Below are positions 1,285 through 39,618 of a stretch of DNA of 64,000 bases, piece after piece. Position numbers and translations under genes: made by a program. The notes under the pieces were generated by a model that was not told the origin of the DNA, made no database searches, and worked only from the letters and a program-made list of their open reading frames with translations. The first letter of the stretch is position 1. Each line of letters opens with the position of its first letter. Where the stretch lies: the NCBI RefSeq assembly GCF_054482595.1, contig NZ_CM137008.1. One strand, 5' to 3'.

Positions 1285-1961
1285 TTCAGTATCTGAACGT
1301 CTTTTTTTACGATATCTACCCGTACATTTGTGCGACGGTGTTTTTCCTCGGCAGCTGGCTGCGCTACGACTACGGGCAGTACACCTGGCGCGCCTCCTCA
1401 AGTCAAATGCTCGATAAACGCGGGATGGTGATATGGTCGAATCTGTTCCATATTGGCATTTTGGGGATTTTCTTCGGGCACCTGTTCGGCATGTTAACGC
1501 CGCACTGGATGTACGCGTGGTTTTTGCCGGTGGCAGCGAAACAACTAATGGCGATGGTGCTCGGAGGCATTTGCGGTGTGTTGACGTTGATTGGTGGCGC
1601 AGGACTGCTGTGGCGCAGGCTGACAAATCAGCGCGTGCGTGCCACTTCCACTACGCCGGATATCATCATCATGAGCATTTTGCTGGTCCAGTGTCTGTTG
1701 GGGCTAAGCACCATACCGTTTTCAGCACAGTATCCTGATGGTAGCGAAATGATGAAGCTGGTGGGTTGGGCGCAAAGCATTGTCACTTTCCGTGGTGGAT
1801 CGTCAGAGATGCTTAACGGTGTAGCGTTCGTCTTCCGCCTGCATCTGGTGTTGGGAATGACCATCTTCCTGCTCTTCCCGTTCACTAGACTGGTGCATGT
1901 GTGGAGCGCGCCGTTTGAGTACTTTACTCGTCGGTATCAGATTGTGCGTTCGCGGCGATAA
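1281..1961 (+). CDS. narV: Respiratory nitrate reductase 2 gamma subunit (membrane cytochrome b)
   Basis: 226-aa hydrophobic ORF; ATGA overlap with narW; NarI-like. Confidence 0.85.
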
Positions 1962-31446: not shown

Positions 31447-33408
31447 TTACCCTTTTCGCTTAGGCAATGTTTTCAGCAGCTCATCCGGACTTACGGATGC
31501 CACTACGCTTCCCGGTAACGGCATTTTCAGTATGTGATTTTTGATTTTGCCAATGACGTGCATCTCGCATGGGCGGCAATCAAACTTTAGCGTTAATACT
31601 TCATCGCCGTTAACCAGTTGCATTGGCGTCGCCTTCCAGCTTTTGATATTGCCTTTCGCCTGTTTCGGGCACAGATTAAAGGCAAAGCGCAGACAATGCT
31701 TGGTGATCATCACCGGGACTTCGCCCTTCTCTTCATGTGCTTCATACGCCGCGTCAATCAGCTGCACACCATAGCGATGATAAAATTCACGCGCTTTCTG
31801 GTTGTATACGTTCGCGAGGAAACTCAGATGCGTTTGCGGATAAACCGGCGCAGGATCAGCAACCGGTTTACGGCTGCCGCGCTGGTAACTGGCAAGACGC
31901 GCAGCATCCAGCATGTCAGCAGCTTCACGGCGGAACTGGTTTAACAGACTGTTTGGTACAAACAGCGCCCCCGGCAAATTAATTTGCACATCGCGGGCGT
32001 AATAGAGGGTTTGCCCCAGTTTTGCCAGACCATCCTTCAGATTGTTCATTGCTTTTTCGGCGTTATTGGCTTCGTCGAACTGCCCGTCCAGCGTATGCGT
32101 GATGCTGACACCCTCTTCACTGGTGAGGGTCAGAATCAGTTGTTCCTGCCAGCCGCCCAGTTCAATGTCTACCGCCACCCGACGTTCGCTGGAGGTTTTT
32201 GTCAGTGCCTGCTGCCAGTTATGATCAAGATTACGGTTTAGTGGGTGATGTGGACGAATTTTGTGCAAATCTGCTGGCATTTCATTGGGCCAGACGCGGT
32301 ACTGATTTTCTCCGGTTTTCTCGACCGTATTGGCACGAAAACCGACGACTTCACGTTTAATCATCACGTTCAGGCCATCACCATTTGCCAGTGGCTCGGT
32401 GACGGCAACATCGAGATGATCTTTCGCCACTTTCAATACTTCGCCTACCGGCAGGCCGATAAATTTCGGCGAATCGAACGCGCCAATATCGCCTTTACGG
32501 GCATTCACAAAATAATCTGTGCTACCACGGTGGAAAGTCTTTTCCGTCGATGGAACAAAGAAATGTTCAGTACGACCTGATGAAGCGCGCGCCAGATCGC
32601 CACGTTCTTCAATAATGGCATCAAGCATCTGGCGATAATGGGCGGTGATATTCTTCACGTAGCTCATATCTTTGTAACGCCCTTCAATCTTGAAGGAGCG
32701 TACGCCAGCATCAATCAGCGCGCCGAGGTTGGCAGTCTGATCGTTATCTTTCATCGACAGCAGATGTTTTTCATAGGAAACCACCCGCCCCTGATCGTCT
32801 TTCAATGTGTATGGCAAACGGCACGCCTGCGAGCAATCACCACGGTTGGCGCTACGCCCTGTTTGCGCATGAGAAATGTAGCACTGACCCGAATAGGCCA
32901 CGCACAGTGCCCCATGAATAAAGAATTCAATGGTCGCGTCCGTGGCCTGGTGAATCGCGCGGATCTGCTCAAGATTCAGCTCTCGCGCCAGCACAATCTG
33001 CGTGAAGCCAACATCAGAGAGGAACTTCGCTTTTTCAACTGTACGAATGTCGCACTGCGTACTGGCGTGCAGTTCAATCGGCGGAATATCAAGTTCCAGA
33101 ATCCCCATATCCTGAACAATCAGCGCATCGACACCGGTCTGGTAGAGGTCAGTAATCAGCCGTTGCGCGGGTTCCAGCTCATCATCATGCAAAATGGTGT
33201 TAAGCGTGACGAAAATTTTTGCACCATAACGATGGGCAAACGGCACCAGCTCGGCAATATCTTTCAGGCTATTACTGGCATTATGACGGGCACCAAAACC
33301 AGGGCCGCCGATATAAACAGCATCGGCACCGTGCAAAATAGCTTCGCGGGCAATGGCGGCATCGCGTGCCGGGCTTAACAGTTCAAGTCGATGAGAAGAT
33401 ACGGTCAC
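31447..33408 (-). CDS. rlhA: Peptidase U32-family protein, 23S rRNA hydroxycytidine synthesis factor
   Basis: ORF 31447..33450; start placed at the GTG giving MTVSSHRLELLSPARDA and 653 aa. Confidence 0.8.
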   Translation of the reverse strand: MTVSSHRLELLSPARDAAIAREAILHGADAVYIGGPGFGARHNASNSLKDIAELVPFAHRYGAKIFVTLNTILHDDELEPAQRLITDLYQTGVDALIVQDMGILELDIPPIELHASTQCDIRTVEKAKFLSDVGFTQIVLARELNLEQIRAIHQATDATIEFFIHGALCVAYSGQCYISHAQTGRSANRGDCSQACRLPYTLKDDQGRVVSYEKHLLSMKDNDQTANLGALIDAGVRSFKIEGRYKDMSYVKNITAHYRQMLDAIIEERGDLARASSGRTEHFFVPSTEKTFHRGSTDYFVNARKGDIGAFDSPKFIGLPVGEVLKVAKDHLDVAVTEPLANGDGLNVMIKREVVGFRANTVEKTGENQYRVWPNEMPADLHKIRPHHPLNRNLDHNWQQALTKTSSERRVAVDIELGGWQEQLILTLTSEEGVSITHTLDGQFDEANNAEKAMNNLKDGLAKLGQTLYYARDVQINLPGALFVPNSLLNQFRREAADMLDAARLASYQRGSRKPVADPAPVYPQTHLSFLANVYNQKAREFYHRYGVQLIDAAYEAHEEKGEVPVMITKHCLRFAFNLCPKQAKGNIKSWKATPMQLVNGDEVLTLKFDCRPCEMHVIGKIKNHILKMPLPGSVVASVSPDELLKTLPKRKG

Positions 33409-33480
33409 ATTCTTATCCAGTAGCTGAAAAATGGCGGCTATTTTAGCCACAAGCGCGACGTTGCGAAATAGTTTTCCCGC

Positions 33481-34017
33481 TTAACTGCGCGGGTAATGGA
33501 TGAGGGAATGAAAATGTACGGTTTGCTCCCCACCATTACGATAGATATGCGTGACGTCTGCAGCAAATCGAACGCCTTCCCCACAATTAAGGGTCTGCCA
33601 TTCCCCATCAACGCACAGATCAAGTTGTCCATCAATGACGACGACATGTTCGATTACCCCCTTCTCATGGGGCGTCGATTCGCTTATTGCACCAGATGCC
33701 ATCTGAATCGAGAAGTGTTCGAAGCAGAGTTGTGGATCATAAGGAAACAGCGAAGTGATCACCATCGCCTGCTGTTGTGGATCATAAACTGAAGGCGTAG
33801 CGGACTGCGGCGGAGAAATAAATGTTGAAAATGGTACGTTCAACCCGGTGGCAATTTTCCATAATGTCGCGACCGTCGGACTGGACTCATTACGCTCAAT
33901 CTGCCCTAACATTGCTTTAGAAACGCCCGTCGCTTCTGCCAGTCGCGAAAGACTCCAGCCGCGCTGCTGGCGTAGTTGTTTAAGTGTGGTGGATAAAAAG
34001 CGAGCGAGATTTTCCAT
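33481..34017 (-). CDS. sutR: XRE-HTH/cupin transcriptional regulator
   Basis: 178-aa ORF; N-terminal HTH, C-terminal cupin. Confidence 0.8.
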   Translation of the reverse strand: MENLARFLSTTLKQLRQQRGWSLSRLAEATGVSKAMLGQIERNESSPTVATLWKIATGLNVPFSTFISPPQSATPSVYDPQQQAMVITSLFPYDPQLCFEHFSIQMASGAISESTPHEKGVIEHVVVIDGQLDLCVDGEWQTLNCGEGVRFAADVTHIYRNGGEQTVHFHSLIHYPRS

Positions 34018-34108
34018 GCGACTCCTCCGGCAAAACGGAAGTTTATCACTTGTGCGTTATAACGGACAAATGCTACGGTGCCTGTACGCTATAACGCACG
34101 AGGTGACT

Positions 34109-35284
34109 ATGCGTCTGTTTTCTATTCCTCCACCCACGCTACTGGCGGGGTTTCTGGCGGTATTAATTGGCTACGCCAGTTCAGCGGCAATAATCTGGCA
34201 AGCAGCGATTGTCGCCGGAGCCACCACTGCACAAATCTCTGGCTGGATGACGGCGCTGGGGCTGGCAATGGGCGTCAGTACGCTGACTCTGACATTATGG
34301 TATCGCGTACCTGTTCTCACCGCATGGTCAACGCCTGGCGCGGCTTTGTTGGTCACCGGATTGCAGGGACTAACACTTAACGAAGCCATCGGCGTTTTTA
34401 TTGTCACCAACGCGTTAATAGTCCTCTGCGGCATAACGGGACTCTTTGCTCGTCTGATGCGCATTATTCCGCACTCGCTTGCGGCGGCAATGCTTGCCGG
34501 GATTTTATTACGCTTTGGTTTACAGGCGTTTGCCAGTCTGGACGGTCAATTTACGTTGTGTGGAAGTATGTTGCTGGTATGGCTGGCAACCAAGGCCGTT
34601 GCGCCGCGCTATGCGGTAATTGCCGCGATGATTATTGGGATCGTGATCGTCATCGCGCAAGGTGACGTTGTCACAACTGATGTTGTCTTTAAACCCGTTC
34701 TCCCCACTTATATTACCCCTGATTTTTCGTTTGCTCACAGCCTGAGCGTTGCACTCCCCCTTTTTCTGGTGACGATGGCATCGCAAAACGCACCGGGTAT
34801 CGCAGCAATGAAAGCAGCTGGATATTCGGCTCCTGTTTCGCCATTAATTGTATTTACTGGATTGCTGGCACTGGTTTTTTCCCCTTTCGGCGTTTATTCC
34901 GTCGGTATTGCGGCAATCACCGCGGCTATTTGCCAAAGCCCGGAAGCGCATCCGGATAAAGATCAACGTTGGCTGGCAGCTGCCGTTGCAGGCATTTTCT
35001 ATTTGCTCGCAGGTCTGTTTGGTAGTGCCATTACCGGGATGATGGCTGCCCTGCCCGTAAGTTGGATCCAGATGCTGGCAGGTCTGGCGCTGTTGAGTAC
35101 CATTGGCGGCAGTTTGTATCAGGCGCTGCATAATGAGCGTGAGCGCGACGCGGCGGTGGTGGCATTTCTGGTAACGGCAAGTGGATTGACGCTGGTCGGG
35201 ATTGGTTCTGCGTTCTGGGGATTAATTGCCGGAGGCGTTTGTTACGTGGTGTTGAATTTAATCGCTGACAGAAACCGATATTGA
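34109..35284 (+). CDS. ydcO: BenE-family membrane transporter
   Basis: Start placed at MRLFSIPPPTLLAG within ORF 33848..35284; 391 aa. Confidence 0.8.
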   Translation: MRLFSIPPPTLLAGFLAVLIGYASSAAIIWQAAIVAGATTAQISGWMTALGLAMGVSTLTLTLWYRVPVLTAWSTPGAALLVTGLQGLTLNEAIGVFIVTNALIVLCGITGLFARLMRIIPHSLAAAMLAGILLRFGLQAFASLDGQFTLCGSMLLVWLATKAVAPRYAVIAAMIIGIVIVIAQGDVVTTDVVFKPVLPTYITPDFSFAHSLSVALPLFLVTMASQNAPGIAAMKAAGYSAPVSPLIVFTGLLALVFSPFGVYSVGIAAITAAICQSPEAHPDKDQRWLAAAVAGIFYLLAGLFGSAITGMMAALPVSWIQMLAGLALLSTIGGSLYQALHNERERDAAVVAFLVTASGLTLVGIGSAFWGLIAGGVCYVVLNLIADRNRY

Positions 35285-35323
35285 CATCCTCCACGCCCTG
35301 AAGGACGTGGATCCCTGCTACGT

Positions 35324-36532
35324 TCAGGCTGTCGCCTGAATCATTTCGGTGGGTTCCTGCTTCAACGGGCGGCCTGACTGCACCATCTCTCCACAGGCAA
35401 GAACGGCGTGCCCCGCCGCTAAAATGTTACGAGCGCCATTTACATCGGCGTTCGCTGTATATCCACATACCTGGCATCTGAATTTACTTTGTGACAGGCG
35501 GTTCTCTTTCGCTGTATGACCACAGTACGCGCAACGCTGGCTTGTATACGCTGGCGGAACAGCAAGCACCTGACCGCCACGCCAGAGCTGCTTGTACTCA
35601 AGCTGGCGGTGCATTTCATACCAGCCCTGATCCAGTATCGAACGGTTTAAACCTGATTTTGCCCGGACATTGCGCCCCGGCTGGCTGACCGTACCCGCTG
35701 CTGACTTTGACATGTTGCTGACCTTCAAATCCTCAATGACTATCATTGCGTGGTTTTTGCTGACGGCCGTTGTGACTTTGTGAAGGTAGTCCCTGCGGAT
35801 ATTTGCGATACAGGAATGCAGTCGCTGTATTTTGCGTTTCTGCTTCTGCCAGTTGTTGCTGAATTTGACCTTGCGGCTTAACTGTCGCTGAAGTCTCGCC
35901 AGCGTCTTCTGGTTTTTCTGAAAACTGTTTACAGGCTCAAAGACTGTGCCATCTGACAGCGTGGCGAGTTTAGCCACGCCAGCATCCAGCCCGACCATTG
36001 ATGCTGAAGGGTGAGCCGGAGTGGATACTTCACTTTCTGTCTGAATACTGATGTACCACTTACCGCAGGACTGGCTGACAGTGACATTTTTCACAACACC
36101 CGTGACCTGACGGCTGTTCCGGTAGCGCATCCAGCCCAGTTTCGGCAGAAAAATACGGCTGTTTTCCTGATCGAGCTTAACGCCCTGCGGGTAGCGGAAT
36201 GCATCATTCTGTCCCCGCTTTTTGAATCGGGGAAAAGCAGCCCGCTTCCGGAAGAAGTTTTTGTAAGCCCGCTCAAGGTCTTTCAGTGACTGTTGCAATG
36301 GCTGTGAGGGAGAATCTTTAAGCCATTGCGTTTCAGTGGCATTTTTCCACTCAACCAGCCAGGAAGCCATTTTCCCGTAAGGGATGTATTTATTACCGGC
36401 CTCATGATTCTCATTCTGACGTGCCAGAGCACGATTGAAAACGAAACGACATGCGCCTGCGAAGCGCCTCATTTCACACTCCTGTTGACCACCTGGTCTT
36501 AACTGGAATTTAAATGCCTGTAATCGTTTCAC
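35324..36532 (-). CDS. insQ: TnpB (OrfB) IS200/IS605 accessory protein, RuvC-like with C-terminal zinc finger
   Basis: 402-aa ORF; C-terminal CAYCGH...CQVCG zinc finger and RuvC-like region. Confidence 0.8.
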
Positions 36533-36539
36533 AGGTCAA

Positions 36540-37046
36540 ATGATACTTTGGTCTGTGAAAAAAGAAACCGATATCCGGCGTGGAAGGCATTGTGTTTTCC
36601 TGATGCATGTTCACCTGGTCTTTGTCACCAGATACCGACGCCAGATTTTTGACCATGACGCGACAGAAAAACTACGCACTTACTTTTCAAATGTATGTGC
36701 TTATTTTGAAGCTGAACTGGTTGAAATGGATGGCGAACCAGATCACGTCCATTTGTTAATTAACTAACCTCCCAAACTGGCGATATCCAGTCTGGTAAAC
36801 AGCCTCAAAGGCGTATCGGGTAGGTTACTGCGACGAGATCGACCAGATATTGCAGTCAGGTATTACTACAAAGGCGTTTTGTGGAGTCCTGGCTATTTTG
36901 CCAGTAGCTGCGGAGGTGCGCCAATATCCGTCATCCGCCAATACATTGAACAACAGCAAACACCTGGTCAGGTGGAAAACCGCGCCTTATATCCCCGCCC
37001 TGAAGGATGGGGTTTTACGGCGCACCGGATAAAAAGCGCCATCTAA
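36540..37046 (+). pseudogene. IS200-type TnpA (Y1 transposase) interrupted by an in-frame TAA
   Basis: HVHLLIN-stop-PPKLAISSLVNSLKG...YYYKGVLWSPGYF: HuH motif and catalytic-Tyr region in one frame, split by TAA at 36765..36767. Confidence 0.65.
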
Positions 37047-37063
37047 CGATGGCGCGTCTGGAA

Positions 37064-37732
37064 CTACTTTTTGTTAACGTCAAACATGGTGGCATCGGTC
37101 GCCATGTCATCAATAACTTGTTTAATATTTTCGAAAGCCATTGGCGTACTTTCGTTATTCAGGTCTTTACCTTCGCCCTGACGAACGACTTTGATAACCG
37201 GTTTATTAGTCGCTGCATCAATCAGCTCACCTTCAAAATAGAGGCGAGTATCCATGGTACGGTGGCCTGTAGCCATTTGCGTCCCCGCAACCACTAATGC
37301 AACAGGAACCACTTCATAGAATTGCAGCCCTTCTTTGCTGGTATCTACACCGGTAATGGCCCCACGGAAAATCAGACTACGCGGCCCAGCGGTGGTAACC
37401 ACTGGTTTACGCTGCGCTATCGCTTCTTTCATTTCGGTGTTGGTATAGTTCAAAATTTTATCCAGAACTTTCTGCCCTACCTGGGTAGAAGGTTTTGGTA
37501 CCGGATAATAAGTGATTGGGTTCCAGACGATGCTGTCATATTTGCTTTGATCAAAACTCGGGTCTACCCAACGTAAAACAGGTTTACCTGTTGCTGAGGT
37601 TGTTTCTTTTAAATCAGAGTAATTGTTTAAAAAACCAGAATATTTATCTGGCTGGGTGATTTTAGAGGCACAACCAGACAGAGCCAACAAGCCGCATAAA
37701 GCTGCAACTTTCGCAAATGATGTGGTACGCAT
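37064..37732 (-). CDS. ydcL: Lipoprotein (DUF3313-like)
   Basis: 222-aa ORF; signal peptide with lipobox LSGC. Confidence 0.8.
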   Translation of the reverse strand: MRTTSFAKVAALCGLLALSGCASKITQPDKYSGFLNNYSDLKETTSATGKPVLRWVDPSFDQSKYDSIVWNPITYYPVPKPSTQVGQKVLDKILNYTNTEMKEAIAQRKPVVTTAGPRSLIFRGAITGVDTSKEGLQFYEVVPVALVVAGTQMATGHRTMDTRLYFEGELIDAATNKPVIKVVRQGEGKDLNNESTPMAFENIKQVIDDMATDATMFDVNKK

Positions 37733-38035
37733 GAATAGTTTCCTGAGATGATTATATTACTTTTTAAGTTATAGCAAAAAGCGCCGCTTCGTGTTGTGGC
37801 AAAAAAAGTGTTGGTGAAAATAAATTTTTTTAGCCCCTTTTCAGACGACATAGTCAATGCCGCAAAAGGGGCTAAGTCAATCATCAGTAGTTAAATTTCA
37901 GTAAGTTAAGCTGCTAAAAAACTTCGACTACTGTGATTAATTTCACATCCCTTCGATAAAAAATATGCTTACCGAAAAGAAGAACAGTAAATCATCTCAG
38001 CGTGGGGAATTTTCACGCGCCTTATTCTTAGCGGG

Positions 38036-38629
38036 TCATTTTTTACGTGCCAGCATCGTGGCGAAACGCAGTTTAATACGATTACCGTTGGCGTCGGTGC
38101 GGTGCAGCTCGCCGACGTCTTCATTGTATTTCACCCTCTCCCAGCCTTCGTAATATCGACGTAATTCTCCCTCTTTGAAGGCAAACGGGAAGCCGACGGT
38201 ACATGGATAATCAGCGGTATCCATCGCCGCCACAATCAGGTTGTAACCACCAGGTTTAGTGCAACGTTGCATATTGGCAATCAACCCGGGGATGGTTTTA
38301 GCCTCAAGGAACATCAGCACCACAGTCGAAAGAATAAAATCGTACTGTCCATCAAATGTGAGGTTATTCAGATCAACGACCCGGGTGTGTAAATTATCCA
38401 GATTTTCAATGGATTTAATGCGCTCGACGTTGGCGATACTCATGGCATTTTTATCCCATGCGTCAACATCATAACCATTGGCTGCCAGGTAAAGACTGTT
38501 ACGACCATTGCCACAGCCCAGATCCAGCGTTTTACCCGGTTTAACCACTTTCACCGCTTCCAGTACTTCAGAGTGTGTGCGGGTTAATTCATATTTATCA
38601 GTAAAATAGTTTTCGTCACGAATGATCAT
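38036..38629 (-). CDS. tehB: Tellurite-resistance SAM-dependent methyltransferase
   Basis: 197-aa ORF with SAM-binding motif [10 protein letters not shown]; ATGA overlap with tehA. Confidence 0.9.
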
Positions 38630-39618
38630 TCTTTGTCCTCTGCTTTCATTAAAACGGCGCGCTCGGTTCTGACTAACAATTTTCCCTGCATCAGAAGCGC
38701 GAAAGTACGGATGAGCAGTATTGCAATAATAAAATTGGTAAAGATAAACAGCGGTACCGCCAGCGTATGGAAAAATCCATTTTCGCTGCCACTCCCCAGA
38801 TGCAAACCGGTGGTTGCCAGTGCAGATACGCCGAACGAGAAACTCCAGAATGAAGCATTAAATGGCTGGGAGAGATACCATGGCATCAGACGTAGCATAA
38901 ACAGCAGTTGCAGCAGTCCATAACCAAAAAGCATTTTCGCCAGCGTATCACCCTCGCCGCCGTTGACGCTCAACCAAGCACTACAGGCCACCAGCGCAGG
39001 AGCGAGCTGAATGCCGAGTGATGTCCGCAGTGCCGTGGGTAATTCTCCCGAACTGCGCAGACGCTGCAAGATCACAGGTTCAAGGCTTAGCCATGAGAAA
39101 ACGCCTGCGCCTAAAAACACCAGACCGGCGTCGGTGTAGCCCAACGCACCACAGGCCATTGCGCTGATAAAGTTGTTGGCAACTGTCGGCAGATACAGTC
39201 CAGGCGTGGTAGCTTCTTCAGGGTGAGATCCGCGCCATAATCCCGCAGTTTGCCAGGCGGCATAAGCCAACTGAACCACGACACCAAAACTGAACAGGCA
39301 CACCGCCAGTGGGCGAAACCACGGAACAAAACCAATCGCCACCAGCATCGTCGTTGCCGGAAACAAACTCACAAAACTGCTCATCACTGGATGGCGCACT
39401 TCTGCCAGCACGCTATGCGGAAAGCGTATGAGTCGGGTAATAAATGCGCTAGTTAACAATCCCCAGATGATCATCGCCAGAATCACCAGCCCATCCCCTA
39501 ACCAGTGGCTGACCTGCCAAACCTGGCTGGCATAGCGCCAGGCAAATCCCATCCCTATCGTCCCCAACACAATACCAAAGTAGCCTGCCGGCAAATTGAG
39601 CACTTTATCGCTCTGCAT
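38626..39618 (-). CDS. tehA: Tellurite-resistance/dicarboxylate-transporter-family membrane protein
   Basis: ORF 38626..39726; start placed at [15 protein letters not shown] for 330 aa. Confidence 0.85.

Follow-up and report, generated by a model that had tools for sequence, protein, structure and literature searches.

An IS609 copy with an intact insQ/tnpB, a decayed tnpA and a predicted ωRNA at the ydcO–ydcL locus of Escherichia coli

The insertion sequence IS609, its insQ product as an RNA-guided endonuclease and its broken tnpA are already known from RefSeq and from the Escherichia coli literature, and the way in which TnpB works is established. The transposase gene of the K-12 copy contains a stop codon and the copy does not transpose (PMC2891674); no new IS609 insertions were found in mutation-accumulation lines (PMC5009759). 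Transcripts of insQ and insP were detected in Shiga toxin-producing E. coli (PMC6033998), a TnpB of the IS609 type has been purified and applied together with a TTAT target-adjacent motif (TAM; PMC12781874), and in the established architecture of TnpB and its ωRNA the guide is placed in the flank 3′ of the right end (RE) of the element (PMC8612924). The subject of this work is an element within a stretch of 64,000 nucleotides from contig NZ_CM137008.1 (RefSeq assembly GCF_054482595.1), the whole of which is referred to as the window. The element can be assigned with high confidence to IS609 (IS200/IS605 family): it is a resident copy that is non-autonomous, has tnpA and tnpB in divergent arrangement and occupies the ydcO–ydcL locus of E. 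coli. Its insQ/tnpB is intact, its tnpA is a pseudogene, and the tnpB 3′ end together with the RE has a conserved, covarying structure that is predicted to be an ωRNA. Coordinates of all features are collected in Table 1.

Positions 35200..37150 of the window share 100 % identity with E. coli XH990 and 99.2 % with J53, a derivative of K-12. For the fully identical record, RefSeq gives the gene order rlhA, sutR, ydcO, insQ, tnpA (annotated as a pseudogene with "internal stop"), ydcL, tehB and tehA. The IS609 assignment was referenced to a copy from O157:H7 with an intact transposase, the tnpA of which is named by RefSeq "IS200/IS605-like element IS609 family transposase"; identity between this copy and the window element is 97.8 % over 1,753 bp. 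Near-identity to IS609, a Y1 HUH TnpA (as a pseudogene), subterminal hairpins in direct orientation and a fixed target without duplication all place the element in the IS200/IS605 family, in agreement with the initial annotation, which had been made from the sequence alone. Autonomous transposition is lacking: the element belongs to IS609 by descent, yet it is non-autonomous.

The ends of the element were determined by comparison with E. coli ATCC 25922, in which the site is empty and ydcO and ydcL are adjacent. The flanks match those of ATCC 25922 on the left through 35280 and on the right from 37029, and the insertion is therefore 35281..37028 (1,748 bp); the span of 35290..37060 that had been proposed is corrected accordingly. 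The junction, between ...AACCGATA and ATAAAAAGCG of the empty site, is unambiguous, and zero target bases are duplicated. At the end of ydcO (35276..35284), the filled site reads AAC CGA TAT TGA (NRY*) and the empty site AAC CGA TAA (NR*), so that the IS adds one Tyr to YdcO and provides its stop codon. The element had been described as merely abutting the ydcO stop, which in fact lies within the IS. Beyond the other end, the terminator-like hairpin of ydcL reads GCGCCATCGTTAGATGGCGC TTTTTAT on the minus strand, and the end of its T-tract is the IS609 target TTTAT; the element therefore lies between a convergent gene pair, right behind the terminator.

The target motif was derived by comparing five independent insertion sites (ydcO/ydcL, ytfB/TetR, a gene for a DUF3251 protein, hslO/yhgE and a plasmid). 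In all five, the tnpB strand has 5′-TTTAT immediately before the left end (LE), and position −6 is variable. The RE end GGAGGATGTCAA is likewise invariant, and the sequence beyond its final GTCAA differs at every site. The motif agrees with the TTAT TAM paired with IS609-type TnpB in a paper of 2026 (PMC12781874, Table S2). The RE and LE hairpins, both with a TTCA loop, form a direct repeat of 86 % identity and not an inverted one. The TTTAT target, the invariant RE end and the directly oriented hairpins are hallmarks of IS200/IS605 elements. The RE of the window element is intact and the same as in active-looking copies, and the LE hairpin is kept but for one mismatch: a change at 37008 creates an A·C mismatch beside a T·G pair. 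This change is common to 8/8 aligned copies from the ydcO locus, whereas the LE hairpin is fully paired in five IS609 copies at other sites; it could be a cis defect in TnpA recognition.

When codon 76 is restored to Tyr, the tnpA product scores 144.6 bits against NF033573 (cut-off 55). In the window this codon is TAA, and in the intact 143-aa TnpA of the O157:H7 IS609 it is TAT (Tyr). A single tnpA frame split by TAA at 36765..36767 and the presence of an HVH motif had both been recognised correctly. The stop codon had, however, been placed at a position where related TnpA proteins have Ile: in intact IS609 the residue is Tyr, and Ile is found in this column in the distantly related TnpA of IS608 only. 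The motif LWSPGYF, which had been taken for the Tyr region, is conserved but does not contain the catalytic Tyr. H69/H71 and Y135 have aligned counterparts in the TnpA structures of IS608 and ISDra2, and Y127 of IS608, the catalytic nucleophile of that enzyme, aligns with Y135 in RQYIEQQ. The HUH motif H69-V-H71 precedes the TAA and the remaining TnpA fold follows it; a 75-aa product would keep the motif without the Tyr helix and would therefore be inactive. The normal stop codon is also lost, CAG in its place giving a 25-aa read-through across the LE to a TAA at 37044..37046. An active TnpA cannot be made in cis by this copy, and because translation ends at codon 76, before Y135, the copy cannot excise or insert alone. 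The probable immobility of the initial annotation thus holds in the sense of non-autonomy, and the K-12 copy is likewise reported not to transpose (PMC2891674, PMC5009759). In principle, TnpA from another IS609 copy could mobilise the window element.

A sequencing or assembly error at the TAA, by which the element would be autonomous, was rejected as practically negligible. The exact 55-mer centred on the TAA was found by megablast, which detects it only when the central base matches, in 1,024 independent complete E. coli genomes; the RefSeq annotation of the identical sequence carries an "internal stop" flag, and four strains carry the TAA together with a 5-bp deletion. The TAA is genuine.

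The intact InsQ/TnpB of 402 aa, described earlier as RuvC-like with a zinc finger, was verified from the open reading frame (ORF) and by profile and structure comparison. RefSeq lists it as WP_000826403.1 ("RNA-guided endonuclease InsQ/TnpB family protein"). Residues 3–372 align to ISDra2 TnpB (8bf8/8exa/8h1j) with an E-value of about 3e-55 (2.6e-55 for 8bf8/8exa). Pfam matches were obtained to HTH_OrfB_IS605 (PF12323), OrfB_IS605 (PF01385) and Cas12f1-like_TNB (PF07282), and the protein has the HTH/WED-REC-RuvC-TNB architecture of TnpB. It scores 378.6 bits against NCBIfam NF040570 (cut-off 100) and 305.8 bits against the narrower "exception" model NF038281, which is under the cut-off of 425. 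D183, E267 and D363 fall on the catalytic triad of ISDra2 TnpB (motifs GVD, TEH and DRDEN), the aligned positions of which we take to be D191, E278 and D361. The zinc finger consists of two CxxC pairs (C334/C337 and C353/C356). The catalytic residues are thus unmutated, and the RuvC site is not inactivated in the manner of TldR proteins.

Upstream of tnpB, TATAAT is conserved in relatives about 7 nt before the ATG (position 1460..1510 of these loci), which suggests a leaderless or near-leaderless tnpB mRNA there. In E. coli IS609 (36533..36560) the sequence at this position is TATCAT and tnpB starts with GTG; the change to TATCAT also makes the upstream in-frame ATG that is annotated as the tnpA start. 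A 14-nt palindrome over the tnpA and tnpB starts (36527..36560) was considered as a regulatory element and dropped, as it is not conserved in relatives. One relative, on a 2,057-bp contig labelled "Streptomyces mutabilis" (NZ_BMTT01000064.1), encodes a TnpB that shares 81 % identity with its E. coli counterpart; the contig probably represents contamination of enterobacterial origin.

The insertion is polymorphic in the species. Of 5,426 complete genomes, 3,263 (about 60 %) have the RE–ydcO junction and 1,993 (about 37 %) have the empty site. Thirteen ydcO-locus copies were sampled, eight of them in aligned form, with counts that are not tree-aware. All 13 have an insQ of 402 aa and CAG at the tnpA stop position. 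Except for this change, tnpA is uninterrupted in one copy (RM9513); the other 12 carry Y76*, Y76* with a 5-bp deletion (EC5502, O111:H8 99.1145, E2865 and 13081), L96* (K-12), E62*, or E62* with a 1-bp deletion. Over the 13 copies, pN/pS amounts to 0.42 in insQ, which departs from neutrality (binomial p = 0.006), and to 0.97 in tnpA. These sequences suggest one old insertion, after which tnpA decayed repeatedly under neutrality and insQ was subject to purifying selection of moderate strength. At other sites, too, IS609 copies tend to retain tnpB and lose tnpA: in E-1246 tnpA has an internal stop, in EC958 it is truncated beside hslO, and on pNT1F34-108k it is mostly lost and tnpB is intact.

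Whether the element is still mobile through TnpA that a further IS609 copy provides in trans, so that "immobile" would be wrong for the strain, was considered in the light of these counts. Its RE is the same as that of active-looking copies, intact genes for the 143-aa TnpA of IS609 are present in E. coli, the XH990 chromosome record has three places that match the query, and 4,878 genomes contain the tnpA segment with TAT, at a median of two places. The other two matches in XH990 may, however, be fragments; the A·C mismatch shared by the aligned locus copies may impair recognition by TnpA; and this LE change, together with the CAG of 13/13 copies, fits a single old insertion that stayed. We consider mobility in trans unlikely.

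The same population data bear on a second explanation, in which insQ and its ωRNA at the ydcO locus are kept by selection without a transposase of their own, either as a selfish, addiction-like locus guard or as a nuclease co-opted by the host. In its favour, insertion at one site is frequent in the presence of the empty site, InsQ is always 402 aa in the sampled copies, and tnpA has acquired three nonsense mutations (Y76*, L96* and E62*) and two frameshifts. All five lesions lie in tnpA, for which the length-proportional chance is about 0.26^5 = 0.001, and pN/pS is lower for insQ than for tnpA. The K-12 chromosome record has one whole-element match, and apparently no other IS609 could serve there as a source of TnpA. 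On the other hand, n = 13 genomes is a small sample, the counts are not tree-aware and the constraint is only moderate; matching genomes have a median of three places, so that TnpA in trans or gene conversion could explain the retention; the RuvC triad is intact, unlike that of the domesticated TldR regulators; and no phenotype is known. Such selection is a tentative explanation, somewhat less improbable than mobility in trans. If true, it would explain the several independent tnpA lesions beside an insQ intact in 13/13 copies of an insertion with a frequency of about 60 %.

For the predicted ωRNA, 80 loci of TnpB relatives (57–94 % aa identity) from Enterobacterales, Burkholderiales and other groups were compared. 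In 61 relatives, non-coding conservation past the tnpB 3′ end stops exactly at ...GGAGGATGTCAA. RNAalifold on a 62-sequence alignment gave four helices only, lineage-specific insertions breaking the alignment, and covariation was therefore analysed on a 25-sequence subset (alignment A2; window 35420..35291) with an author-specified structure of six helices and 36 pairs. Helices 1–3 lie within the tnpB coding sequence, helices 4 and 5 across the tnpB stop, and helix 6 is the RE hairpin. Standard pairs occupy 90.3 % of cells, as compared with 37–47 % when the 3′ partners were slid by 1–3 columns; compensatory double changes occur in 25 of the 36 pairs, with a mean of 11.6 in shuffles, and 0 of 500 shuffles matched the observed pairing values. 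In helices 1–3 the protein sequence shifts to keep the pairing, for example GCGGCG/CGCCGT versus GCGCGA/TCGCGT. As TnpA needs only the terminal hairpin, helices 1–3 indicate an RNA, the ωRNA scaffold. Evidence from sequence and structure supports a structured RNA that covers the tnpB 3′ end and the RE and ends at the transposon boundary. A guide RNA at the tnpB 3′ end and element end had been anticipated; covariation supports its location, and the interval of 35290..35330 that had been given for it is too short, since the scaffold covers at least 35281..35420 and the guide is predicted in the flank. In betaproteobacterial relatives, extra GC-rich hairpins are found in the helix-3 loop and in the RE hairpin (alignment A1, columns 100–134 and 223–266), and the scaffold therefore tolerates lineage-specific expansions.

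The predicted guide, placed in the flank by this architecture, would be antisense to the end of ydcO. Its sequence occurs once in the window, in the flank beside the RE with GTCAA in the TAM position; in the empty allele, TTTAT directly precedes it. By analogy, GTCAA in the filled and TTTAT in the empty allele is the self/non-self logic described for TnpB. The following course of events is proposed. An ancestral IS609 entered the locus in single-stranded form, on the 3′ side of a TTTAT that belongs to the T-tract of the ydcL terminator, and no target bases were duplicated. The insQ/tnpB 3′ end and the RE would then encode the structured ωRNA, with the guide read from the flank. If it acts like TnpB of ISDra2 and of Geobacillus, the TnpB–ωRNA complex would cut the empty site, TTTAT followed by TATCGGTTTCTGTCAG, and would leave uncut the occupied locus, in which the TAM is replaced by GTCAA. 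Cutting of the empty site could bias repair or recombination towards retention of the element. In the locus-guard form of the selection hypothesis, preformed TnpB–ωRNA would cut the empty allele (TTTAT and TATCGGTTTCTGTCAG) upon loss of the element or its replacement from an IS-free strain; this form is possible, and we regard it with as much reserve as the general one.

Several points weigh against a working ωRNA and nuclease. Helix 6 is also the single-stranded DNA site of TnpA, and its covariation fits either role. An Rfam scan of 33000..39000, evaluated by E-value, gave no match above the gathering thresholds. A simple sigma-70 scan revealed no convincing promoter for tnpB or the ωRNA, and the IS609-type TnpB is outside the group of high trans-cleavage enzymes in PMC12781874. 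Expression of the ωRNA, the length of its guide and cleavage activity are moreover inferred by us from related systems. The sub-threshold Rfam matches (HgcC, 22.2/50; RAGATH-18, 25.4/44.9; sot0042, 17/88) were taken as a hint and not as evidence. The RAGATH-18 match (35354..35397, minus strand) corresponds to helices 2 and 3, and the HgcC and sot0042 matches overlap the same region, which hints that these three families are ωRNA-like. A literature search for an E. coli study on the endogenous insQ/ωRNA yielded nothing specific.

An exact 12-nt direct repeat, AGAAACCGATAT, was observed at 35270..35281 (ydcO end and guide region) and at 36563..36574 (5′ part of tnpA). Its role as a self-target was rejected: the internal copy is without an adjacent TTTAT, and the chance expectation of such a repeat, for a region of this size, is about 1 in 10.

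Table 1. Features of the IS609 element and its flanks in the window (LE, left end; RE, right end).
Feature	Position	Strand	Basis
Complete IS609 element, 1,748 bp	35281..37028	− (oriented by tnpB; LE at the high-coordinate end, RE at the low-coordinate end)	empty-site comparison
insQ/tnpB, intact, 402 aa, GTG start	35324..36532	−	ORF list, Pfam, NCBIfam, RefSeq
tnpA pseudogene (Y1 HUH transposase), original 143-codon frame	36540..36971	+	NF033573, RefSeq "internal stop"
Premature stop TAA, Y76*, after HUH (H69/H71) and before catalytic Y135	36765..36767	+	comparison with intact IS609
Normal tnpA stop TAG changed to CAG	36969..36971	+	comparison with intact O157:H7 copy
Predicted ωRNA (reRNA) scaffold, six helices, at least 140 nt	35281..35420	−	covariation, conservation
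Predicted guide UAUCGGUUUCUGUCAG, length assumed; flank 3′ of RE, antisense to last ydcO codons	35265..35280	−	TnpB/ωRNA architecture (PMC8612924)
RE subterminal imperfect hairpin CCACGTCC-TTCA-GGGCGTGG	35291..35310	−	equals helix 6; direct repeat with LE hairpin
LE subterminal hairpin CCCCATCC-TTCA-GGGCGGGG	36993..37012	−	five-site alignment, direct repeat
Target/TAM pentanucleotide 5′-TTTAT, directly 5′ of LE, outside the element	37029..37033	−	five-site comparison
ydcO stop TGA, contributed by the IS	35282..35284	+	empty/filled comparison
Terminator-like hairpin directly downstream of the ydcL stop codon	37036..37055	−	terminator/promoter scan

As a discovery the element carries little weight, being an ordinary and known one, and the population pattern of the ydcO-locus copies is the one, mildly interesting addition to the known picture. 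What is of practical use is a precise description of the locus, with its ends, its TTTAT target, the guide predicted for it and an ωRNA model for IS609 relatives that is supported by covariation. A polymorphic locus, at which an intact TnpB has outlived its transposase, could also offer a test system, in the best-studied bacterium, for stabilisation by TnpB alone.

Among known systems, IS609 of K-12 (insQ, formerly ydcM, and the insP/yncK pseudogene) is the closest: it occupies the same ydcO–ydcL site with an intact tnpB and a tnpA pseudogene. The lesions differ: tnpA is disabled by Y76* (TAA) in the window lineage and by L96* (TGA) in K-12, where codon 76 is still TAT. The TnpB–ωRNA complex of ISDra2 (PDB 8exa, 8bf8 and 8h1j; PMC8612924, PMC10097598) is comparable through a nearly full-length TnpB alignment in which the D-E-D triad and the zinc finger are shared. 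In ISDra2, and by prediction in the window, the RNA extends over the tnpB 3′ end and the RE, flanking DNA provides the guide, and target site and TAM are identical. The TAM is TTTAT in the window and TTGAT in ISDra2, and tnpA is divergent in the window (IS605/IS609 layout) and co-directional in ISDra2.

IS608 of Helicobacter pylori (2a6m, 2vjv) likewise has a Y1 HUH TnpA, with its catalytic Y127 aligned with Y135, and it shares with the window element the directly oriented subterminal hairpins, an RE ending in TCAA and insertion 3′ of a short target without duplication. Its target is TTAC in place of TTTAT, its genes are co-directional, and the similarity of its TnpA is distant (E-value about 1e-18), with Ile where IS609 has Tyr76. 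The TldR proteins, nuclease-dead, domesticated TnpB-like regulators (bioRxiv 10.1101/2023.11.30.569447), are also members of the TnpB family retained without a working transposase. Unlike TldR, InsQ of the window has an intact RuvC triad, and its gene lies inside a recognisable IS with both ends.

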